Positions 28,653 to 35,030 of a DNA stretch of 64,000 nt are shown piece by piece. The notes below the pieces were generated by a model. The model did not search any database and had not been told where the DNA came from. It saw nothing but the letters and a program-made list of their open reading frames with translations. The stretch lies in assembly GCF_048403405.1 (NCBI RefSeq), contig NZ_CP183129.1; one strand, written 5' to 3'. The DNA is from Escherichia coli (lineage in GTDB: Bacteria > Pseudomonadota > Gammaproteobacteria > Enterobacterales > Enterobacteriaceae). The position numbers and the translations under genes were made by a program. Every line of letters begins with the position of its first letter. The first letter of the stretch is position 1.

Positions 28653-29764
28653 TGTGCAGCTCCTGGTTTGGCCTCACCAATCACCACTTCATCGCCCGCT
28701 TCCAGCCCTTTGACAATCTCAACATCGGTATCGTTACGTGCGCCAATCGTCACTTCACGCTCGCGTGTTTCACCATTACGCAACAATTTGACTTTATAAC
28801 GATTATCGCCAACCGGATCGCCTAACGCCGACAAAGGGATCGTCAGCACATTTTTCACATCGGTGAGCTGAATATGCACTTGCGCGGTCATATCCAGCCG
28901 CAGCAAACCATTGGGGTTGGGTACTTCAAAACGGGCGTAATAGAAAATAGCGTCGTTAACCTTTTCCGGCGTCGGTAGCACATCCTTGATTTGCCCTTCG
29001 TAGCGCGTCAGCGGATCGCCAAGCACCGTAAACCAGGCTTTTTGCCCCGGCTTCAGGTGGATTACATCCGCTTCAGAAACCTGCGCTTTTACCAGCATGG
29101 TGCTCATATCTGCCAGCGTCAGAATGTTCGGTGCTTGTTGTGCGGCAATCACCGTCTGGCCTTGCAGAGTGGTGATTTGCGTGACTTCCCCGGCCATCGG
29201 AGCAACGATGCGGGTGTAATCGAGATTGGTTTTAGCCGTATCGAGAGAGGCCTGATTGCGCTTGATTTGCGCGTCAATGGTGCCAATTTGCGCCTGTTTC
29301 ACAGCCATCTCCGTCGCGGCGGTATCGAGATCCTGCTGTGAAACCGCCTGCGTTTGTGCAAGACGTTGCTGACGGGAATACGTCACCCGCGCCAGTTTCA
29401 GCTCCGCTTCCGCCTGCTGCCGCTGCGCGCGTAGCTCCATCAGCGTTGCTTCCACCTCCTTGATCTGGTTTTCAGCCTGTTCAGGATCAATAACCCCTAA
29501 AAGCTGGTCTTTTTTTACTTTATCGCCAATCGCCACCGACAGCGTTTTCAACTGACCGCTGACCTGCGCGCCCACATCAACCTTACGCAGCGCGTCCAGC
29601 TTTCCGGTCGCCAGCACGCTTTGCTGTAAATCACCGGGGCGCACAATCAGCGTCTGATAAGTCGGCACGGGTGCGTTAAGAATTCTCCATAACGTAATCA
29701 GCCCGGCGATGACTATCACCAGCGCAATAACGTAACGCTTCTTCACGGTTTTCCGCTTTTTCAT
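28649..29764 (-). CDS. macA: Macrolide efflux periplasmic adaptor MacA
   Basis: Start moved to [12 protein letters not shown]... (371 aa); coiled-coil HlyD-family adaptor. Confidence 0.92.
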
Positions 29765-29878
29765 AAATATTCTGAATACTCCATATGCCAATCCGGGTCA
29801 TTAACTTCAACGAAATATCAACAAAACCCTAAAATTTACGTTAATAATCACACTATTGATGTTTGGTTAAGATACGCA

Positions 29879-30871
29879 ATGGTGAAATCGACGTCATGTA
29901 TAACCATTGATTTCATGAATATGTCGCAGCTAACTGAACGGACCTTTACGCCATCTGAATCTCTCAGCAGCCTGTCACTTTTTCTTAGTCTGGCACGTGG
30001 ACAGTGTCGGCCGGGTAAATTCTGGCATCGCCGTAGTTTTCGCCAGAAATTTTTGCTGCGCTCGTTGATTATGCCGCGTTTAAGCGTTGAGTGGATGAAC
30101 GAACTTTCCCACTGGCCTAATCTCAATGTGTTGTTAACGCGCCAGCCGCGACTGCCTGTGCGTCTGCATCGCCCTTACCTTGCGGCGAATCTTAGCCGTA
30201 AGCAATTGCTGGAGGCGTTACGTTACCATTATGCGTTACTCCGCGGGTGTATGTCGGCGGAAGAATTCAGCTTATATTTGAATACCCCCGGGCTGCAACT
30301 GGCGAAGCTGGAAGGCAAAAACGGCGAGCAGTTCACACTTGAGCTGACCATGATGATCTCAATGGATAAAGAAGGTGACAGCACAATCCTGTTCCGCAAC
30401 AGCGAAGGTATTCCTCTGGCAGAGCTCACGTTTACCCTGTGTGAATATCAGGGGAAAAGAACGATGTTTATTGGCGGACTGCAAGGCGCAAAATGGGAAA
30501 TTCCACATCAGGAAATCCAGAATGCGACGAAAGCCTGCCACGGGCTATTTCCCAAACGCCTCGTGATGGAAGCGGCCTGTCTGTTTGCCCAACGTTTGCA
30601 GGTAGAGCAGATTATTGCCGTCAGCAATGAAACGCATATTTACCGCAGCCTGCGTTATCGCGATAAAGAAGGCAAGATCCATGCCGATTACAACGCTTTC
30701 TGGGAATCGGTTGGCGGCGTATGTGATGCTGAACGCCATTACCGCCTTCCGGCACAGATAGCACGAAAAGAGATTGCCGAAATCGCCAGTAAAAAACGGG
30801 CTGAATACCGTCGGCGCTATGAGATGCTCGACGCTATTCAGCCACAAATGGCCACGATGTTTCGCGGTTAA
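29879..30871 (+). CDS. ybjX: DUF535/VirK-like protein YbjX (start uncertain)
   Basis: 330-aa ORF at the K-12 ybjX position; internal ATGs such as MNMSQ are alternative starts. Confidence 0.8.
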   Translation: MVKSTSCITIDFMNMSQLTERTFTPSESLSSLSLFLSLARGQCRPGKFWHRRSFRQKFLLRSLIMPRLSVEWMNELSHWPNLNVLLTRQPRLPVRLHRPYLAANLSRKQLLEALRYHYALLRGCMSAEEFSLYLNTPGLQLAKLEGKNGEQFTLELTMMISMDKEGDSTILFRNSEGIPLAELTFTLCEYQGKRTMFIGGLQGAKWEIPHQEIQNATKACHGLFPKRLVMEAACLFAQRLQVEQIIAVSNETHIYRSLRYRDKEGKIHADYNAFWESVGGVCDAERHYRLPAQIARKEIAEIASKKRAEYRRRYEMLDAIQPQMATMFRG

Positions 30872-32526
30872 TCCGCGCGACCGCGCGCCAGCCACAGCAC
30901 GCGTGAGAACATTTTTTTCAGCAGCGTCGGTACGGAATCCACACCACGACGTCCTGCCTCCATTGCCACTTCAATGGCAAGATCGGGTTTGGAAGAGCGA
31001 TGGATCGCTTTCGAGATAATTTTGCGCAGATTCATCGGTACATTTTCCGGGATTTGCGCCACGCGGTGGAACACATCGGAAAATCCCTGGCGATACATAA
31101 AATGTTCCATATCCAGCGCCGGTAACGCCGTTAAATGTTCTCGTTCGGCTTCCCGATCGTTATTCAACAGGCTGCGTACCGTAGCGGCATATTTCTTCCC
31201 TGCTTCATCGCCATCGACCAGTACATGCCATTCAATCCCCATTCGCCGGGCAAATTTAACCAGTGGCTTTAGCCCGGACTGGGCAAACTCAATGACCTTG
31301 ATCCCTTCAGCATCAAAATGATGTCCGCACTGACGCGCCAGTTCATTGATAACCCAGGTTTCCGTTTCCCCTTCCACCAGCAGCCAGCAGCGTGCAAACA
31401 GCGATGATGGACGATTAAAACGAATGTGGAAAGAGATGCGTCGGCTGTCTTCGGTACTCAAACCACTCGGCCCCAGACGCCAGGCGGCAACGCGCGAGGA
31501 CTCACGTACCAGTCGGCAAATATGCTCTACCGGCGTTAACGAAAGCAACTCACCCGAGTTGGTGGTGGCAATGCGCTGCAATGGCAGAAGATTCAACAGA
31601 TGCCAGGCAACTGAAAGCATAATGGGGTGTAAACGGGTTTCTGGATCTTCGATCAGCAACAATGGACGGGCGTCTTTATCCAGTCGCAATGTGCCTTTTG
31701 CCTGCAATAAAGTAGCAAACAGGCCGAGCAAAATAACCCGATACGAGCGCCCTCCTGGTCGGTCAATCATCCTGTTGATGATATCCAGATAGCGCCAGCT
31801 TCGTTGCTCATTGCTGGCTCGCCGCCGCATTAAACGATATCGCGCCTGTCCGGCCCCCTGCTCAGAGAAATAATGCTCAAGCAGCTGTACCATTGCGGAA
31901 AGTCCCTGACGAATCTGTCCATCAGAGAGATTTTGCGGATGTGAGGACAACTCACGGGCGAGGAAATCGAGCTGGCGCGCGGTGACTTCCACATTAGGGA
32001 CATTTGGCACCGTGCCGTTACGAATACGGCGCATAAAACGGGCATCACGCAAGCGCAGCACCGGCATTAAACGCACCAGATGGCGTGCCTGATCGTTAAT
32101 ATCCTCGACATCAATCGGATGTCCGTCTTTATCGAGAAAACTGCGCAGTGTCATCACGCTGCCGTCTTCCGCACTCTCCCCTTCCAGACGATAAAAAATA
32201 CGGTGATAGCCATCGGTGCATGGCATCCAGCACGCTTCCAGCGGCCGATAGCGGCGAACCCGATGTCGGCCTGGCAGCGATTCGCGGAAGGTCAAAATAA
32301 TATGCAGATGATGTTCCCGACCGTTGATATCTCCCGGCGGGAACCAGAAATCGTCGCGCTCAAAATGGTAGAGATCTGATTCTGGCGATAGCAGCAGAGT
32401 TAAGGCGTCCAGCAAGCTGGATTTACCCCACGCGTTCTCCCCAATCAGGACGTTGTTTTGTTCCAGCATCAATGACAAACGATTGATACCGCGAAAACCC
32501 ACAATTTCAACGCGCTCAAGAATCAT
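30868..32526 (-). CDS. ybjD: OLD-family-like ATPase/nuclease (DUF2813) YbjD
   Basis: 552 aa; N-terminal P-loop (GENAWGKSS) and C-terminal Toprim-like region; same position as K-12 ybjD. Confidence 0.88.
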   Translation of the reverse strand: MILERVEIVGFRGINRLSLMLEQNNVLIGENAWGKSSLLDALTLLLSPESDLYHFERDDFWFPPGDINGREHHLHIILTFRESLPGRHRVRRYRPLEACWMPCTDGYHRIFYRLEGESAEDGSVMTLRSFLDKDGHPIDVEDINDQARHLVRLMPVLRLRDARFMRRIRNGTVPNVPNVEVTARQLDFLARELSSHPQNLSDGQIRQGLSAMVQLLEHYFSEQGAGQARYRLMRRRASNEQRSWRYLDIINRMIDRPGGRSYRVILLGLFATLLQAKGTLRLDKDARPLLLIEDPETRLHPIMLSVAWHLLNLLPLQRIATTNSGELLSLTPVEHICRLVRESSRVAAWRLGPSGLSTEDSRRISFHIRFNRPSSLFARCWLLVEGETETWVINELARQCGHHFDAEGIKVIEFAQSGLKPLVKFARRMGIEWHVLVDGDEAGKKYAATVRSLLNNDREAEREHLTALPALDMEHFMYRQGFSDVFHRVAQIPENVPMNLRKIISKAIHRSSKPDLAIEVAMEAGRRGVDSVPTLLKKMFSRVLWLARGRAD

Positions 32527-32951
32527 ATCCCCTCCAGAAATATGTGACTTATCCTTTACGCTGGCAGTATAACGGGAAAGGCCATGCTAATACGTGATGA
32601 CATCACATTTAAGCATGGCAAATGTCTGAAAAATGAGCGAATAATCGCGTTATACTCCCTCTTGCTGATAAGCCTGCAAAAACAACAAAATCAAATAATT
32701 AGCATGATAAATTATTTTTTATTACGCCTAAAGGATTAAATCTTTCGCTTGCACTACACTGTCAATCAGACAAATGACTATATGGGGCAACCCGCTGTTG
32801 CCCTAAATCAAATTTACTGGATTTATTTATCTGGCGAATGATTTGCCTTCGTTTTTAAAATAGCCGCGCATTATTTCCGTCGTCACTTTTTTACGACGAC
32901 CCTATAAAACGACCATATTTTTCACAGGGTCAATTTTTAATTGAGGTGGAT

Positions 32952-33647
32952 ATGTTCAGAAAATTAGCAGCTGAATGTTTTGGTACTTTCTGGCTTGTTT
33001 TTGGTGGCTGTGGTAGTGCCGTACTGGCCGCAGGCTTCCCGGAATTAGGCATTGGTTTTGCCGGCGTGGCGCTGGCATTCGGTCTGACCGTTCTGACGAT
33101 GGCCTTTGCTGTTGGTCATATTTCTGGTGGTCATTTTAACCCGGCGGTCACTATTGGTTTATGGGCTGGCGGACGTTTCCCGGCAAAAGAAGTCGTTGGC
33201 TACGTAATTGCCCAGGTTGTCGGCGGTATTGTTGCGGCGGCGCTGCTGTATTTAATTGCCAGTGGTAAAACGGGTTTTGACGCGGCAGCCAGCGGTTTTG
33301 CTTCTAACGGTTATGGCGAGCATTCGCCAGGCGGTTATTCCATGCTTTCCGCACTGGTAGTTGAACTGGTATTGAGTGCAGGTTTCCTGCTGGTGATCCA
33401 CGGCGCAACCGACAAATACGCTCCGGCAGGTTTTGCACCGATCGCTATTGGTCTGGCCTTAACCCTGATTCACTTAATCAGTATTCCGGTGACTAACACT
33501 TCTGTTAACCCGGCGCGCAGCACCGCGGTTGCTATCTTCCAGGGCGGCTGGGCATTAGAACAACTGTGGTTCTTCTGGGTGGTGCCAATTGTCGGCGGTA
33601 TTATCGGTGGTCTGATTTACCGGACTCTACTGGAAAAGCGTAATTAA
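32952..33647 (+). CDS. aqpZ: Aquaporin Z
   Basis: Start moved to [13 protein letters not shown]... (231 aa); two NPA motifs (HFNPAV, VNPARS). Confidence 0.95.
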
Positions 33648-33656
33648 TTAACGCAG

Positions 33657-33686
33657 AAGGCCTGGCGCAATGTCAGGCCTTTTTTA
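33657..33686 (+). terminator. Rho-independent terminator after aqpZ
   Basis: Hairpin aggcctggcgcaatgtcaggcct followed by TTTTTT. Confidence 0.7.
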
Positions 33687-33699
33687 AATATATTGATTC

Positions 33700-33990
33700 A
33701 TCTTCCTGTTGCGCTCCTTGATGTGTTAAGCCACATATAGTCACTGGCGCAGGGAGCGCGCAGGGGGCGGCCAATCGCCGCCGCCCCCTGCACCCCCAGG
33801 CTCTGGCGAACAAAATCGCCGCTGCGCGGTGCCCTCGACTTATCCCTTACGGCTACCGGGTCGGGCGCGAGGTAACATCCCTGTAAAACGCGCCCTCAGC
33901 CCACATCCATGTGGGCTGCCCCGGCCTTCAGGGAACGCCTCGGCGATTTTGACGCCACCAACACCGGTGCGGTTTGTAATTAAAGCGCAA
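33700..33990. repeat. GC-rich extragenic element built from nested imperfect palindromes
   Basis: Inverted repeats cagggggcggc/gccgccccctg, cagcccacat/atgtgggctg and ggcgaacaaaatcgccg/cggcgattttgacgcc; no ORF. Confidence 0.5.
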
Positions 33991-34130
33991 GAATATCTTT
34001 AAATGAAAATGAATACCCTACCGATCCTTATGCATAACATTTCCTTTTAATTGCAACTTTACTCGCCCTTCCGCTTTCAGTAGTGTGTCATCGCGCATTT
34101 CGACTTCATCTTTGCAAGGACTGGGTTTTC

Positions 34131-35030
34131 ATGTTTTCTGGGCTGTTAATCATTCTGGTTCCCCTGATTGTGGGTTACCTCATTCCTCTTCGCCAAAAAG
34201 CTGCATTAAGAGTTATTAATCAGCTATTAAGCTGGATGGTTTACCTTATTCTCTTTTTTATGGGTATCAGTCTGGCGTTTCTCGATAACCTCGCCAGTAA
34301 CCTGTTGGCGATTCTGCATTATTCTGCCGTCAGTATTACCGTTATTTTACTGTGTAATATTGCCGCCCTTATGTGGCTGGAGCGAGGCCTGCCATGGCGC
34401 AATCACCATCAGCAAGAAAAACTCCCGTCGCGTATTGCGATGGCGCTGGAGTCGCTAAAACTGTGCGGCGTAGTAGTGATTGGTTTTGCCATTGGCCTGA
34501 GTGGACTGGCTTTCTTACAACATGCGACCGAAGCCAGTGAATACACCTTAATTCTGCTACTTTTCCTCGTCGGTATTCAGTTGCGCAATAATGGCATGAC
34601 CTTAAAGCAGATTGTCCTTAATCGCCGGGGAATGATTGTCGCCGTGGTGGTGGTTGCCAGTTCATTAATTGGTGGTTTAATTAACGCCTTTATTCTTGAT
34701 CTTCCCATCAATACCGCGCTGGCAATGGCCTCTGGTTTCGGCTGGTATTCTCTTTCCGGTATTTTATTGACTGAATCTTTTGGTCCGGTAATCGGGAGCG
34801 CGGCGTTTTTTAATGATTTGGCCCGTGAGCTGATTGCTATTATGTTGATCCCCGGGCTGATTCGCCGCAGCCGCTCTACTGCACTGGGCTTATGCGGTGC
34901 CACATCAATGGATTTCACCCTGCCCGTTCTTCAACGTACTGGCGGGCTGGATATGGTCCCGGCGGCGATTGTTCACGGTTTTATTCTTAGTCTGTTAGTG
35001 CCGATCCTCATCGCCTTTTTCTCTGCATAA
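34131..35030 (+). CDS. lysO: Lysine exporter LysO (YbjE)
   Basis: Start moved to MFSGLLIILVPLIVGYL... (299 aa); polytopic membrane protein. Confidence 0.9.
   Translation: MFSGLLIILVPLIVGYLIPLRQKAALRVINQLLSWMVYLILFFMGISLAFLDNLASNLLAILHYSAVSITVILLCNIAALMWLERGLPWRNHHQQEKLPSRIAMALESLKLCGVVVIGFAIGLSGLAFLQHATEASEYTLILLLFLVGIQLRNNGMTLKQIVLNRRGMIVAVVVVASSLIGGLINAFILDLPINTALAMASGFGWYSLSGILLTESFGPVIGSAAFFNDLARELIAIMLIPGLIRRSRSTALGLCGATSMDFTLPVLQRTGGLDMVPAAIVHGFILSLLVPILIAFFSA

Follow-up and report, generated by a model that had tools for sequence, protein, structure and literature searches.

The ybjD gene lies on the minus strand at positions 30868-32526 of the window, a 64,000-nucleotide stretch of Escherichia coli DNA. 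It is the sole long open reading frame (ORF) listed there, starts with ATG and encodes 552 amino acids, the product length given in an earlier reading of this DNA made from the letters alone (the sequence-only reading). The sequence is 100% identical to the ybjD annotated by RefSeq in strain TUM14771, labelled 'ybjD: ATP-dependent endonuclease' and adjoined by 'ybjX: VirK/YbjX family protein'. The neighbours are clpSA, cspD, macAB, ybjX, aqpZ, lysO and hcp-hcr; no partner gene is found among them, as that reading had also stated. The Pfam family DUF2813 matched residues 1-375 (E 2e-160) over the full model (positions 1-372 of 372; 534.6 bits for a cutoff of 21), and OLD-like_TOPRIM (PF20469) matched residues 376-440 (E 4e-16). 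That YbjD is an OLD-family protein is already known: Schiltz et al. 2019 took it as their OLD query, assigned it to Class 1 and remarked that purification went poorly for most Class 1 homologs (PMC6755086), and a 2026 microPublication carried out experiments that the sequence-only reading had suggested (PMC13261556). A literature search for papers on 'DUF2813' found none. The features of the locus are collected in Table 1.

Table 1. Features of the ybjD locus, in positions of the window.
Feature	Position	Strand	Basis or remark
ybjD CDS (proposed name oldB)	30868..32526	-	552 codons + TAA stop; ORF list, RefSeq identity, Pfam
ABC-type (Rad50/SMC/RecF-like) ATPase region incl. helical insert (predicted)	31402..32526	-	residues 1-375
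Walker A/P-loop GENAWGKS (K35)	32419..32442	-	residues 29-36; translation
Predicted helical insert in ATPase domain	31696..31998	-	about residues 177-277; AF2 model
Walker B + D-loop LLLIEDPETRLH (E293, D294, E296, H300)	31627..31662	-	residues 289-300; alignments
H-loop position TTNS	31555..31566	-	residues 321-324; hhalign to P2 Old
Toprim nuclease domain (predicted)	31117..31401	-	residues 376-470; Pfam OLD-like_TOPRIM, conservation, AF2
E385/E389 codons	31360-31374	-	Toprim domain
D438-G-D440 codons	31207-31215	-	Toprim domain
C-terminal four-helix domain (predicted)	30871..31116	-	residues 471-552; AF2 model
Putative metal-B D472/E474 codons	31105-31113	-	C-terminal domain
K513 codon (invariant Lys)	30988-30990	-	C-terminal domain
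Candidate -10 hexamer TATACT of ybjD	32566..32571	-	invariant in 11-genus alignment; putative function
Shine-Dalgarno GGAGG	32531..32535	-	4 nt upstream of ATG
TTAA common to ybjD (-) and ybjX (+) stop codons	30868..30871	.	tail-to-tail 4-bp overlap

Conservation was assessed in 106 YbjD relatives, with identities down to about 30%, and the fold was predicted with AF2 (pLDDT 88.9 overall, 95-98 in the Toprim domain). Residues 1-375 would form a Rad50/SMC-like ABC ATPase head carrying a helical, probably dimerising, insert. The P-loop GENAWGKSS described in the sequence-only reading was found in the translation at residues 29-37, and within Walker A G29 is kept in 105 relatives, E30 in all 106, G34 in 104 and K35 in 94, with Arg in its place in 10. 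The insert was modelled as four helices (177-195, 202-220, 242-255 and 260-277), and the loops at 172-175 and 224-240 have low confidence; on the analogy of Ts OLD and GajA, the insert is probably a dimerisation domain (PMC7049728). The Walker B and D-loop segment LLLIEDPETRLH aligns with IYLIEEPEISLH of GajA and with P2 Old, and E293, E296 and H300 are conserved in 94, 98 and 105 of the 106 relatives, respectively. At the H-loop, Asn323 occupies the place of P2 Old His332 in the hhalign alignment (N in 65 relatives, H in 18, Q in 13 and Y in 8), an Asn swap known among Class 1 OLDs (Schiltz 2020).

The Toprim domain carries the invariant Glu and the DxD motif of the OLD family, and the second-metal ligands and catalytic Lys of the two-metal scheme (Schiltz 2019/2020) are present as well, in a spatial arrangement taken from the AF2 models. 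The seven residues of this scheme (E385, E389, D438, D440, D472, E474 and K513) are 96-100% conserved: E385, D440, E474 and K513, together with E387, are invariant, and E389, D438 and D472 are found in 104, 104 and 102 of the 106 relatives. The model places an extra helix (458-464) between alpha3 and beta4 of the Toprim domain and a four-helix bundle at residues 473-548. Cleavage by YbjD would follow the OLD two-metal scheme, metal A being held by E385, D438 and D440 and metal B by E389, D472 and E474, with K513 stabilising the transition state and the helical region 471-552 completing the active site. The best Foldseek matches were GajA (2.7e-19) and Ts OLD (1.1e-17), followed by the retron Eco8 OLD. 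The sequence-only reading had described an N-terminal ATPase followed, towards the C-terminus, by a Toprim-like region, the OLD architecture, and had proposed structure prediction and inspection of the Walker B and Toprim catalytic residues as checks; Pfam, motifs and fold matches agree with this architecture, and the Walker A, Walker B and Toprim residues are intact. By its residues and predicted fold, YbjD is expected to be a catalytically intact OLD-family enzyme.

Regarding expression signals, phylogenetic footprinting across 11 genera revealed the candidate -10 hexamer 39 nt upstream of the ybjD ATG, and a G-rich Shine-Dalgarno block in which three columns are invariant and GGAGG is present in most genera. 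A sigma-70 scan of 30400-33000 gave no full promoter and no canonical -35 for ybjD. A 39-bp palindrome at 32581-32619 covers the expected -35 position. SOS regulation was rejected: no LexA box lies nearby, and the single match, with 3 mismatches at position 1530, is at chance level. No Rfam family was detected in 29000-34500.

At the other end of the gene, the ybjX ORF (+) runs to 30871 and ybjD (-) to 30868, so that the convergence and 4-bp stop overlap noted in the sequence-only reading are real; the two genes, being convergent, are therefore not an operon. The scan of 30400-33000 found no terminator between them, and an E. coli RNA-seq study lists the pair among its convergent excludons (PMC12288877). 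The overlap and this listing could be taken to mean that ybjD and ybjX function as a pair, whether as a two-gene system or through a mutual antisense excludon that is essential for YbjD to function. However, in 25 of 78 species, among them Klebsiella, Raoultella and Pectobacterium, no ybjX lies downstream of ybjD, and where it is present its product averages 56% identity compared to 85% for YbjD. On this phyletic pattern the pairing is largely refuted and appears very improbable, and ybjX was rejected as a YbjD partner on pattern and divergence together.

By gene context YbjD is a stand-alone, 'Class 1' OLD. By sequence and predicted C-terminal architecture, it would instead be GajA/Class 2-like, without an adjacent helicase gene. 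A model of the C-terminal region (CTR) only (pLDDT 96) gave TM scores of 0.73-0.76 with the Class 2 CTRs of B. pseudomallei and X. campestris (6nk8, 6njw), 0.43-0.56 with B. cereus GajA (8sm3, 8x5i) and 0.39 with Thermus scotoductus (Ts) OLD, a Class 1 enzyme (6p74). Ts OLD has neither the Insert-3 helix nor the C-terminal helical domain and carries R487 at +7 (PMC7049728), whereas both elements are present in the YbjD model, which has no Arg or Lys at +7: this position (G481) is Gly in 105 of the 106 relatives, and the invariant K513 stands within the helical bundle at +39 from the metal-B Glu E474. As in Class 2, the predicted Toprim domain is followed by a helical domain that would supply catalytic residues. 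Sequence comparisons point the same way. In hhalign, YbjD aligned with a true plasmid GajA over residues 1-491 (E 1e-35), through the D-x-E motif, and with P2 Old over residues 253-448 only (E 1e-12; 28% identity by tblastn); PADLOC scored YbjD at 268 bits with its GajA model and at 84 bits with its Old model, which gives P2 Old 712 bits. Like YbjD, P2 Old is encoded by a stand-alone gene and has its domains in the same order, and its Walker A/B, D-loop, Toprim E and DxD align with those of YbjD; its catalytic Lys, however, is at +7 from the metal-B Glu, and its CTR does not align with that of YbjD. It should be noted that identity to the solved GajA proteins is only 12-17%, and that a direct PDB sequence search with YbjD gave weak matches alone (7e-5), which are no guide to class.

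The likeness to GajA raises the question of its helicase. The plasmid locus (L092) encodes both GajA and GajB, in contrast to the helicase-free ybjD locus, and no UvrD/PcrA/Rep-like GajB helicase adjoins ybjD in the 87 loci examined (80 orthologous and 7 distant). GajB has homologues in E. coli, the helicases UvrD and Rep. With the Class 2-type CTR and the near full-length alignment to a helicase-linked GajA, this would fit a GajA-like nuclease that has lost GajB and acts in trans with one of these SF1 helicases of the host, a 'split Gabija' serving defence or repair. We consider this improbable, as none of the 87 loci holds a nearby helicase and no direct evidence links YbjD to any helicase.

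Across genomes, ybjD was found in 5424 of 5426 complete E. coli genomes, with a median of one copy, which bears out its earlier description as a core gene. Of at least 532 genomic relatives, the best 80 were inspected for context; in these 80 Enterobacterales species ybjD is at the same locus with an intact, full-length ORF, and 7 distant family members are all stand-alone among housekeeping genes. The neighbours macAB, ybjX, aqpZ and lysO include neither a UvrD-like helicase nor a reverse transcriptase nor any further defence gene, and the same holds for the 80 species and the 7 distant loci. Mean identity of YbjD (85%) is similar to that of MacB (86%), MacA (84.5%) and LysO (84%), with r of 0.80-0.92. 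Across Enterobacterales the DUF2813 lineage is single-copy, keeps its synteny and is inherited vertically; relatives also occur in Vibrio and Aeromonas. The dN/dS of ybjD is 0.016-0.055, and the Toprim segment has the lowest values within the gene (0.003-0.027), showing that purifying selection on ybjD is strong and bears most heavily on the nuclease domain. These values, the full-length ORF in 80 species and the invariant catalytic residues refute the idea that ybjD is what remains of an old defence gene, decaying and without present function; that the gene is non-essential and that its deletion has no phage-plaquing phenotype (PMC13261556) would suit a relic, but this reading is now barely conceivable.

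Among 50,697 phage records no full-length YbjD relative was found, and the sole phage match was P2 old (28% over one third of the protein). True plasmids likewise gave no full-length relative, only partial matches of 24-31%. A mobile origin of ybjD was rejected, the phage match being partial and the high-identity 'plasmid' matches being chromosome-sized, chromosomal fragments or chromids. The genomic signature typical of defence genes (variable presence, islands, mobile elements and horizontal spread) is absent from ybjD, which, unlike GajA and other Class 2 loci, is a chromosomal core gene with no adjacent GajB/UvrD-like helicase. Unlike a mobile anti-phage gene, ybjD evolves in the manner of a conserved housekeeping gene.

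The sequence-only reading had proposed ybjD as a possible cryptic defence gene whose cellular role was unsettled. The role is still unsettled, though the first phenotypes were published in 2026 (PMC13261556), including the plaque assays which that reading had suggested. Deletion of ybjD, which is non-essential (the Keio deletion strain is viable), left plaque-assay phage susceptibility unchanged, contrary to a defence role. Overexpression weakly restricted a few BASEL phages: induced YbjD lowered plaquing of Bas18 and Bas20 and shrank Bas64-68 plaques. This effect persisted without the Toprim domain and with K35A, and is therefore silent on the conserved nuclease. The K35A mutant was more toxic, and YbjD toxicity was RecBC-independent (PMC13261556), whereas the phage-borne P2 Old kills recBC cells and requires its nuclease. 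The Class 1 Vc OLD of Vibrio cholerae, active against ICP1, is also a stand-alone bacterial OLD with RecBCD-independent action (PMC11741312), but mutations in its conserved ATP-binding residues abolish defence, whereas the overexpression phenotype of YbjD, compared by description, needs neither Toprim nor K35 (PMC13261556).

These phenotypes bear on the interpretation shared by the sequence-only reading and PMC13261556, namely that YbjD is a true stand-alone anti-phage nuclease, silent or ATP-inhibited in healthy cells, which infection (for example through nucleotide depletion or a phage protein) would activate to cause nucleic-acid damage or an abortive outcome. OLD membership, closeness to GajA models and the plaquing effects on the Bas phages are in its favour, as are the toxicity of K35A, like that of an ATP-restrained effector (PMC13261556), and native expression that may be low (no canonical -35; palindrome over the -35 position). 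The deletion result, the independence of the overexpression effect from Toprim and K35, and the genomic evidence (fixed synteny, housekeeping-level identity, low dN/dS, no defence island, no phage or plasmid copies) argue against it, and we regard it as unlikely. Thus the structural part of the earlier proposal stands in full, and its functional part is weakly supported. If true, a silent stand-alone defence in every E. coli would bear on phage-therapy host-range thinking.

Because the lineage is syntenic, vertically inherited and under purifying selection strongest on the nuclease domain, we lean, with modest confidence, towards YbjD being a domesticated, ATP-gated chromosomal OLD nuclease whose selected function needs Toprim and whose anti-phage capacity is latent at most, appearing on overexpression only. 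Gating of the nuclease in a nucleotide-dependent manner would fall to the ATPase head: the greater toxicity of K35A suggests that ATP binding restrains YbjD activity, as in GajA. Gating may nevertheless differ from that of GajA, since 10 of the 106 relatives have Arg in place of K35 and Asn stands at the H-loop, the ATPase motifs being looser than the nuclease motifs. Several points weigh against domestication. No housekeeping phenotype is known for ybjD, a non-essential gene; the K35A-enhanced toxicity resembles a restrained immune effector; some defence genes are chromosomally fixed, so that core status alone cannot exclude defence; and the structural arguments are drawn from predicted models. 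To our knowledge, all characterised bacterial OLD enzymes act in defence. A Salmonella Tn-seq study, known through its citation, reportedly found 'old' to be conditionally essential under temperature stress, and this 'old' may differ from the ybjD orthologue.

A parallel to domestication is offered by Cran1, an OLD-family ATPase of Sulfolobales with a cell-cycle role, which is vertically inherited, keeps its synteny within the order, has an ATPase-dependent, nuclease-independent overexpression phenotype and is apparently not antiviral (PMC12796447). Cran1 differs in being archaeal, essential and in a separate clade (U11), whereas YbjD is non-essential with no known cell-cycle phenotype. Only tentatively, we propose that DUF2813/YbjD represents a GajA-like OLD nuclease whose domestication in Gammaproteobacteria lies far back, a bacterial counterpart of Cran1. 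Its housekeeping role, which would require Toprim, might for example be to process intermediates of replication or repair, or an RNA intermediate, perhaps together with an SF1 helicase of the host; on this view the anti-phage effect of overexpression would be a by-product of the ATPase/DNA-binding head.

With its identification already published, the remaining value of ybjD lies in its function, as a still-uncharacterised E. coli core gene of a family otherwise known from phage defence alone. If YbjD is a domesticated housekeeping nuclease, it would be the first case in bacteria of an OLD enzyme taken into cell physiology, and would warn against reading immunity from OLD or GajA homology. Selection within YbjD is strongest on the nuclease domain, yet this domain is dispensable for the sole phenotype reported so far.

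The open reading frame assigned to ybjD by the sequence-only reading is borne out by the ORF list and the translation, with GENAWGKSS at YbjD residues 29-37. The ATPase and Toprim architecture it had described was recovered in Pfam as DUF2813 (residues 1-375, E 2e-160) and OLD-like_TOPRIM (residues 376-440, E 4e-16), with partial matches to the P-loop families AAA_15, AAA_21 and SMC_N. The DNA is 100% identical to ybjD of E. coli TUM14771, labelled 'ATP-dependent endonuclease' in RefSeq. Its designation as a conserved core gene also holds: ybjD is found at ≥95% identity in 5424/5426 complete E. coli genomes (median one copy per genome), adjoining ybjX in all genomes with a match. The gene order is clpA-clpS-cspD-macB-macA-ybjX, ybjD, aqpZ-lysO-hcp-hcr-poxB, and no defence or mobile genes were found from clpA to poxB, in agreement with the claimed lack of a partner gene. 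The reported 4-bp overlap with the convergent ybjX corresponds to a TTAA common to both stop codons. Only 168 of the 5424 records reach ≥99% identity to the ybjD of the window, most lying at 95-99%, so that the window seems to derive from an E. coli lineage that is sequenced less often.

Features at the ybjD locus (window coordinates)
Feature	Position	Strand	Remarks
ybjD ORF	30868-32526	-	ATG start, 552 aa
ybjX	29915-30871		convergent to ybjD; VirK family
Candidate -10, TATACT	32566-32571	-	invariant across 11 genera, 39 nt from ATG (footprinting)
Shine-Dalgarno GGAGG of ybjD			conserved across 11 genera (footprinting)
Near-perfect palindrome, 39 bp	32581-32619		19-nt arms, 84% complementary
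Inverted repeat, 12 nt	32780-32808		ybjD-aqpZ intergenic, nearer aqpZ
Inverted repeat, 12 nt	32898-32931		ybjD-aqpZ intergenic, nearer aqpZ

Catalytic residues were examined in an alignment of YbjD and 105 relatives (two close orthologues at 90-91% identity, the others at 28-54%), most of which came from an exhaustive HMMER search across 1.84 billion representatives (334 clusters at E < 1e-30). E385, E387, D440, E474 and K513 are kept in 106/106 sequences, E389 and D438 in 104 and D472 in 102, and these residues match the metal-A, metal-B and Lys/Arg sets of Bp OLD, Ts OLD and P2 Old (PMC6755086, PMC7049728). The ATPase motifs can be recognised but vary more than the nuclease residues: position 35 is Lys in 94/106 and Arg in 10, position 293 is Glu in 94, E296 is retained in 98 and the D-loop H300 in 105, and position 294 varies (Asp 59, Glu 28, Asn 10). 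At the H-loop YbjD has Asn323, where the family counts are 65 N, 18 H, 13 Q and 8 Y; this Asn swap is known among Class 1 homologs (Schiltz 2020). Since nuclease and ATPase motifs are both retained, the loss of catalytic residues that would have spoken against the sequence-only reading did not occur, and YbjD is essentially certain to be an intact OLD-family ATPase-nuclease.

The AlphaFold2 model built on this alignment (pLDDT 88.9, pTM 0.87) comprises an ABC ATPase head, a helical insert (about 177-277) with two loops of low confidence, a Toprim domain running from β1 (380-384) to β4 (465-467) and holding an additional helix (458-464), and a four-helix C-terminal bundle (residues 473-548). 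Its best fold matches were OLD proteins, namely GajA (E 2.7e-19; score 22.9 (419)), Ts OLD (1.1e-17; 22.2 (368)) and retron Eco8 OLD (about 1e-13; 21.9 (407)), ahead of the SMC, Rad50 and RecF heads (about 3e-9 to 1e-8 for SMC and Rad50; scores 15-17).

YbjD (b0876) served as the query with which OLD homologs were collected, and E. coli and Salmonella were placed among the isolated genes of Class 1 (Schiltz et al. 2019, PMC6755086). Because OLD classes are set by gene context (PMC10568477), YbjD is 'Class 1'. The Class 1 Ts OLD lacks both the Insert-3 helix and a helical domain at its C terminus, and carries its catalytic Arg 7 residues past the metal-B Glu, a spacing shared by P2 Old (E543 to K550), whereas K562 of Bp OLD sits in the helical domain (Schiltz 2020, PMC7049728). 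By contrast with Ts OLD, the YbjD model has an additional predicted helix at an Insert-3-like position and a predicted C-terminal helical bundle; its +7 residue is an invariant Gly, unlike in Ts OLD and P2 Old, and at +39, within the bundle, lies an invariant Lys. The C-terminal region modelled by itself (residues 372-552, pLDDT 96) matched the Class 2 regions 6nk8 and 6njw with TM-scores of 0.73-0.76 (E 7e-7 to 3e-6), compared to 0.43-0.56 for the Class 2 GajA (E 1e-3 to 0.1) and 0.39 for the Class 1 Ts OLD (E 1.6e-2). The YbjD family profile aligns with P2 Old over residues 253-448 only (E 1e-12) and with an E. coli plasmid GajA, a mobile, helicase-linked relative, over residues 1-491 (E 1e-35). 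PADLOC gives YbjD 268 bits with a GajA model but 84 bits with the 'Old' model, on which P2 Old reaches 712 bits. These structural features, TM-scores and sequence comparisons indicate that YbjD is, as modelled, a stand-alone OLD whose catalytic region is of Class 2 type, which fits the nesting of Class 2 inside a paraphyletic Class 1 (PMC12796447). The plasmid GajA belongs to a complete Gabija locus (NZ_CP081743.1, 3182-6902; GajA 607 aa, 866 bits; GajB 631 aa, 950 bits) on an IncF/IncN plasmid, where it adjoins umuDC and an integrase.

Scanning one genome from each species yielded at least 532 relatives, of which the best 80 were inspected. All of these come from Enterobacteriaceae or Pectobacteriaceae (67-99% identity); among them, the order lysO/aqpZ, ybjD, (ybjX), macA-macB is retained in the former family and lysO, ybjD in the latter. 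Mean identity is 85% for YbjD, 86% for MacB, 84.5% for MacA and 84% for LysO, and YbjD identity correlates with that of these neighbours (r = 0.80-0.92). Identity to E. coli YbjD drops with phylogenetic distance, from 90% in Salmonella and 86% in Klebsiella to 68% in Pectobacterium, 65% in Yersinia, 64% in Serratia, 56% in Proteus, 45% in Aeromonas and 41-44% in Vibrio. The dN/dS of ybjD (Nei-Gojobori) is 0.016-0.055, equal to or below those of macA, macB, aqpZ and lysO, and is lowest in the Toprim segment (0.003-0.027). Each of seven distant DUF2813 members stands alone amid housekeeping genes (for example between ribH-nusB-thiL-pgpA and dxs-ispA-xseB, or between cysS and nrdBA), with no helicase neighbour at these loci. 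The sole real homolog in 50,697 phage records was P2 old (28% over 34% of the protein), and true plasmids gave only partial, GajA-like matches (24-31%). This pattern is different from that expected of a defence gene.

High-identity 'plasmid' copies were rejected as chromosome-sized records, chromosomal fragments or chromids; the PLSDB records with ybjD-ybjX (CP088669.1, CP061270.1, NZ_OL790696.1, NZ_CP141089.1, CP125156.1 and others), of 0.7-5.4 Mb or small chromosomal fragments, appear to be mislabelled chromosomal sequence. OR845570.1 ('Escherichia phage ECO95 1-6-1', 2060 bp) carries at 1-285 the first 98 ybjD codons (91% amino-acid identity), probably of host origin and not a phage gene. 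Six DUF2813 and Toprim proteins of 800-1867 aa (P0149, P0162, P0163, P0165, P0173 and P0166) show big ATPase-domain insertions and long C-terminal extensions; over residues 260-500 they are 40-45% identical to YbjD.

The finding stands, but it had been published before. ybjD is expressed in E. coli, and the Keio deletion leaves phage susceptibility in plaque assays unchanged, whereas arabinose-induced YbjD, screened against 68 BASEL phages, reduced plaquing of Bas18 and Bas20 and gave smaller Bas64-68 plaques (Atahualpa et al. 2026, PMC13261556). Hence the plaque assays proposed by the sequence-only reading exist, negative for deletion and positive for a few phages upon overexpression. The phenotype was kept in point mutants of the three Toprim acidic residues, without the whole Toprim domain (construct 1-377) and, with higher toxicity, in K35A, and was lost upon deletion of the ATPase domain; YbjD did not kill recBC(ts) cells, unlike P2 Old, and the name oldB was proposed (PMC13261556). 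Other papers mentioning ybjD employ the aqpZ-ybjD intergenic stretch for integration or include the gene in expression tables. Genuine stand-alone defence, the cryptic role first suggested for ybjD, draws on OLD family membership and the overexpression phenotypes, but is less likely given the silent deletion, a phenotype independent of the nuclease, housekeeping-like evolution and strongest constraint on that same nuclease. These four observations point instead to a domesticated cellular role and suggest that the selected function of YbjD has so far escaped the published assays. We lean slightly towards a domesticated, ATP-gated nuclease, which would have a cellular role. The evolutionary argument parallels that for Cran1, an archaeal OLD that acts in the cell cycle and whose phenotype upon overexpression requires the ATPase and not the nuclease (PMC12796447); more tentatively, by this analogy, YbjD might be a bacterial Cran1-like housekeeping OLD.

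As a partner for ybjD, ybjX was ruled out by its patchy presence and low identity: of the 78 species with sufficient flanking sequence, 25 lack it downstream of ybjD (among them Klebsiella, Raoultella, Trabulsiella and Pectobacterium), and where present it has a mean identity of 56% versus 84-89% for the locus neighbours, evolving far faster than all of them. Two Kluyvera loci place it about 1.1 kb farther from ybjD. The tail-to-tail gap is ≤30 nt in 47/53 cases, and from this common abutment mutual transcriptional interference is plausible, though not essential; RNA-seq placed ybjD-ybjX among convergent 'excludons' in E. coli (PMC12288877).

Searches found no LexA box for ybjD, no canonical sigma-70 promoter in 30400-33000, no terminator between ybjD and ybjX and no Rfam RNA in 29000-34500. 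In Escherichia, the 39-bp palindrome lies 10 nt upstream of TATACT, over the expected -35 position, and could be an operator. It is single-copy and unannotated, and occurs in 5393/5426 E. coli genomes; Citrobacter and Salmonella retain only the inner ATCAC.
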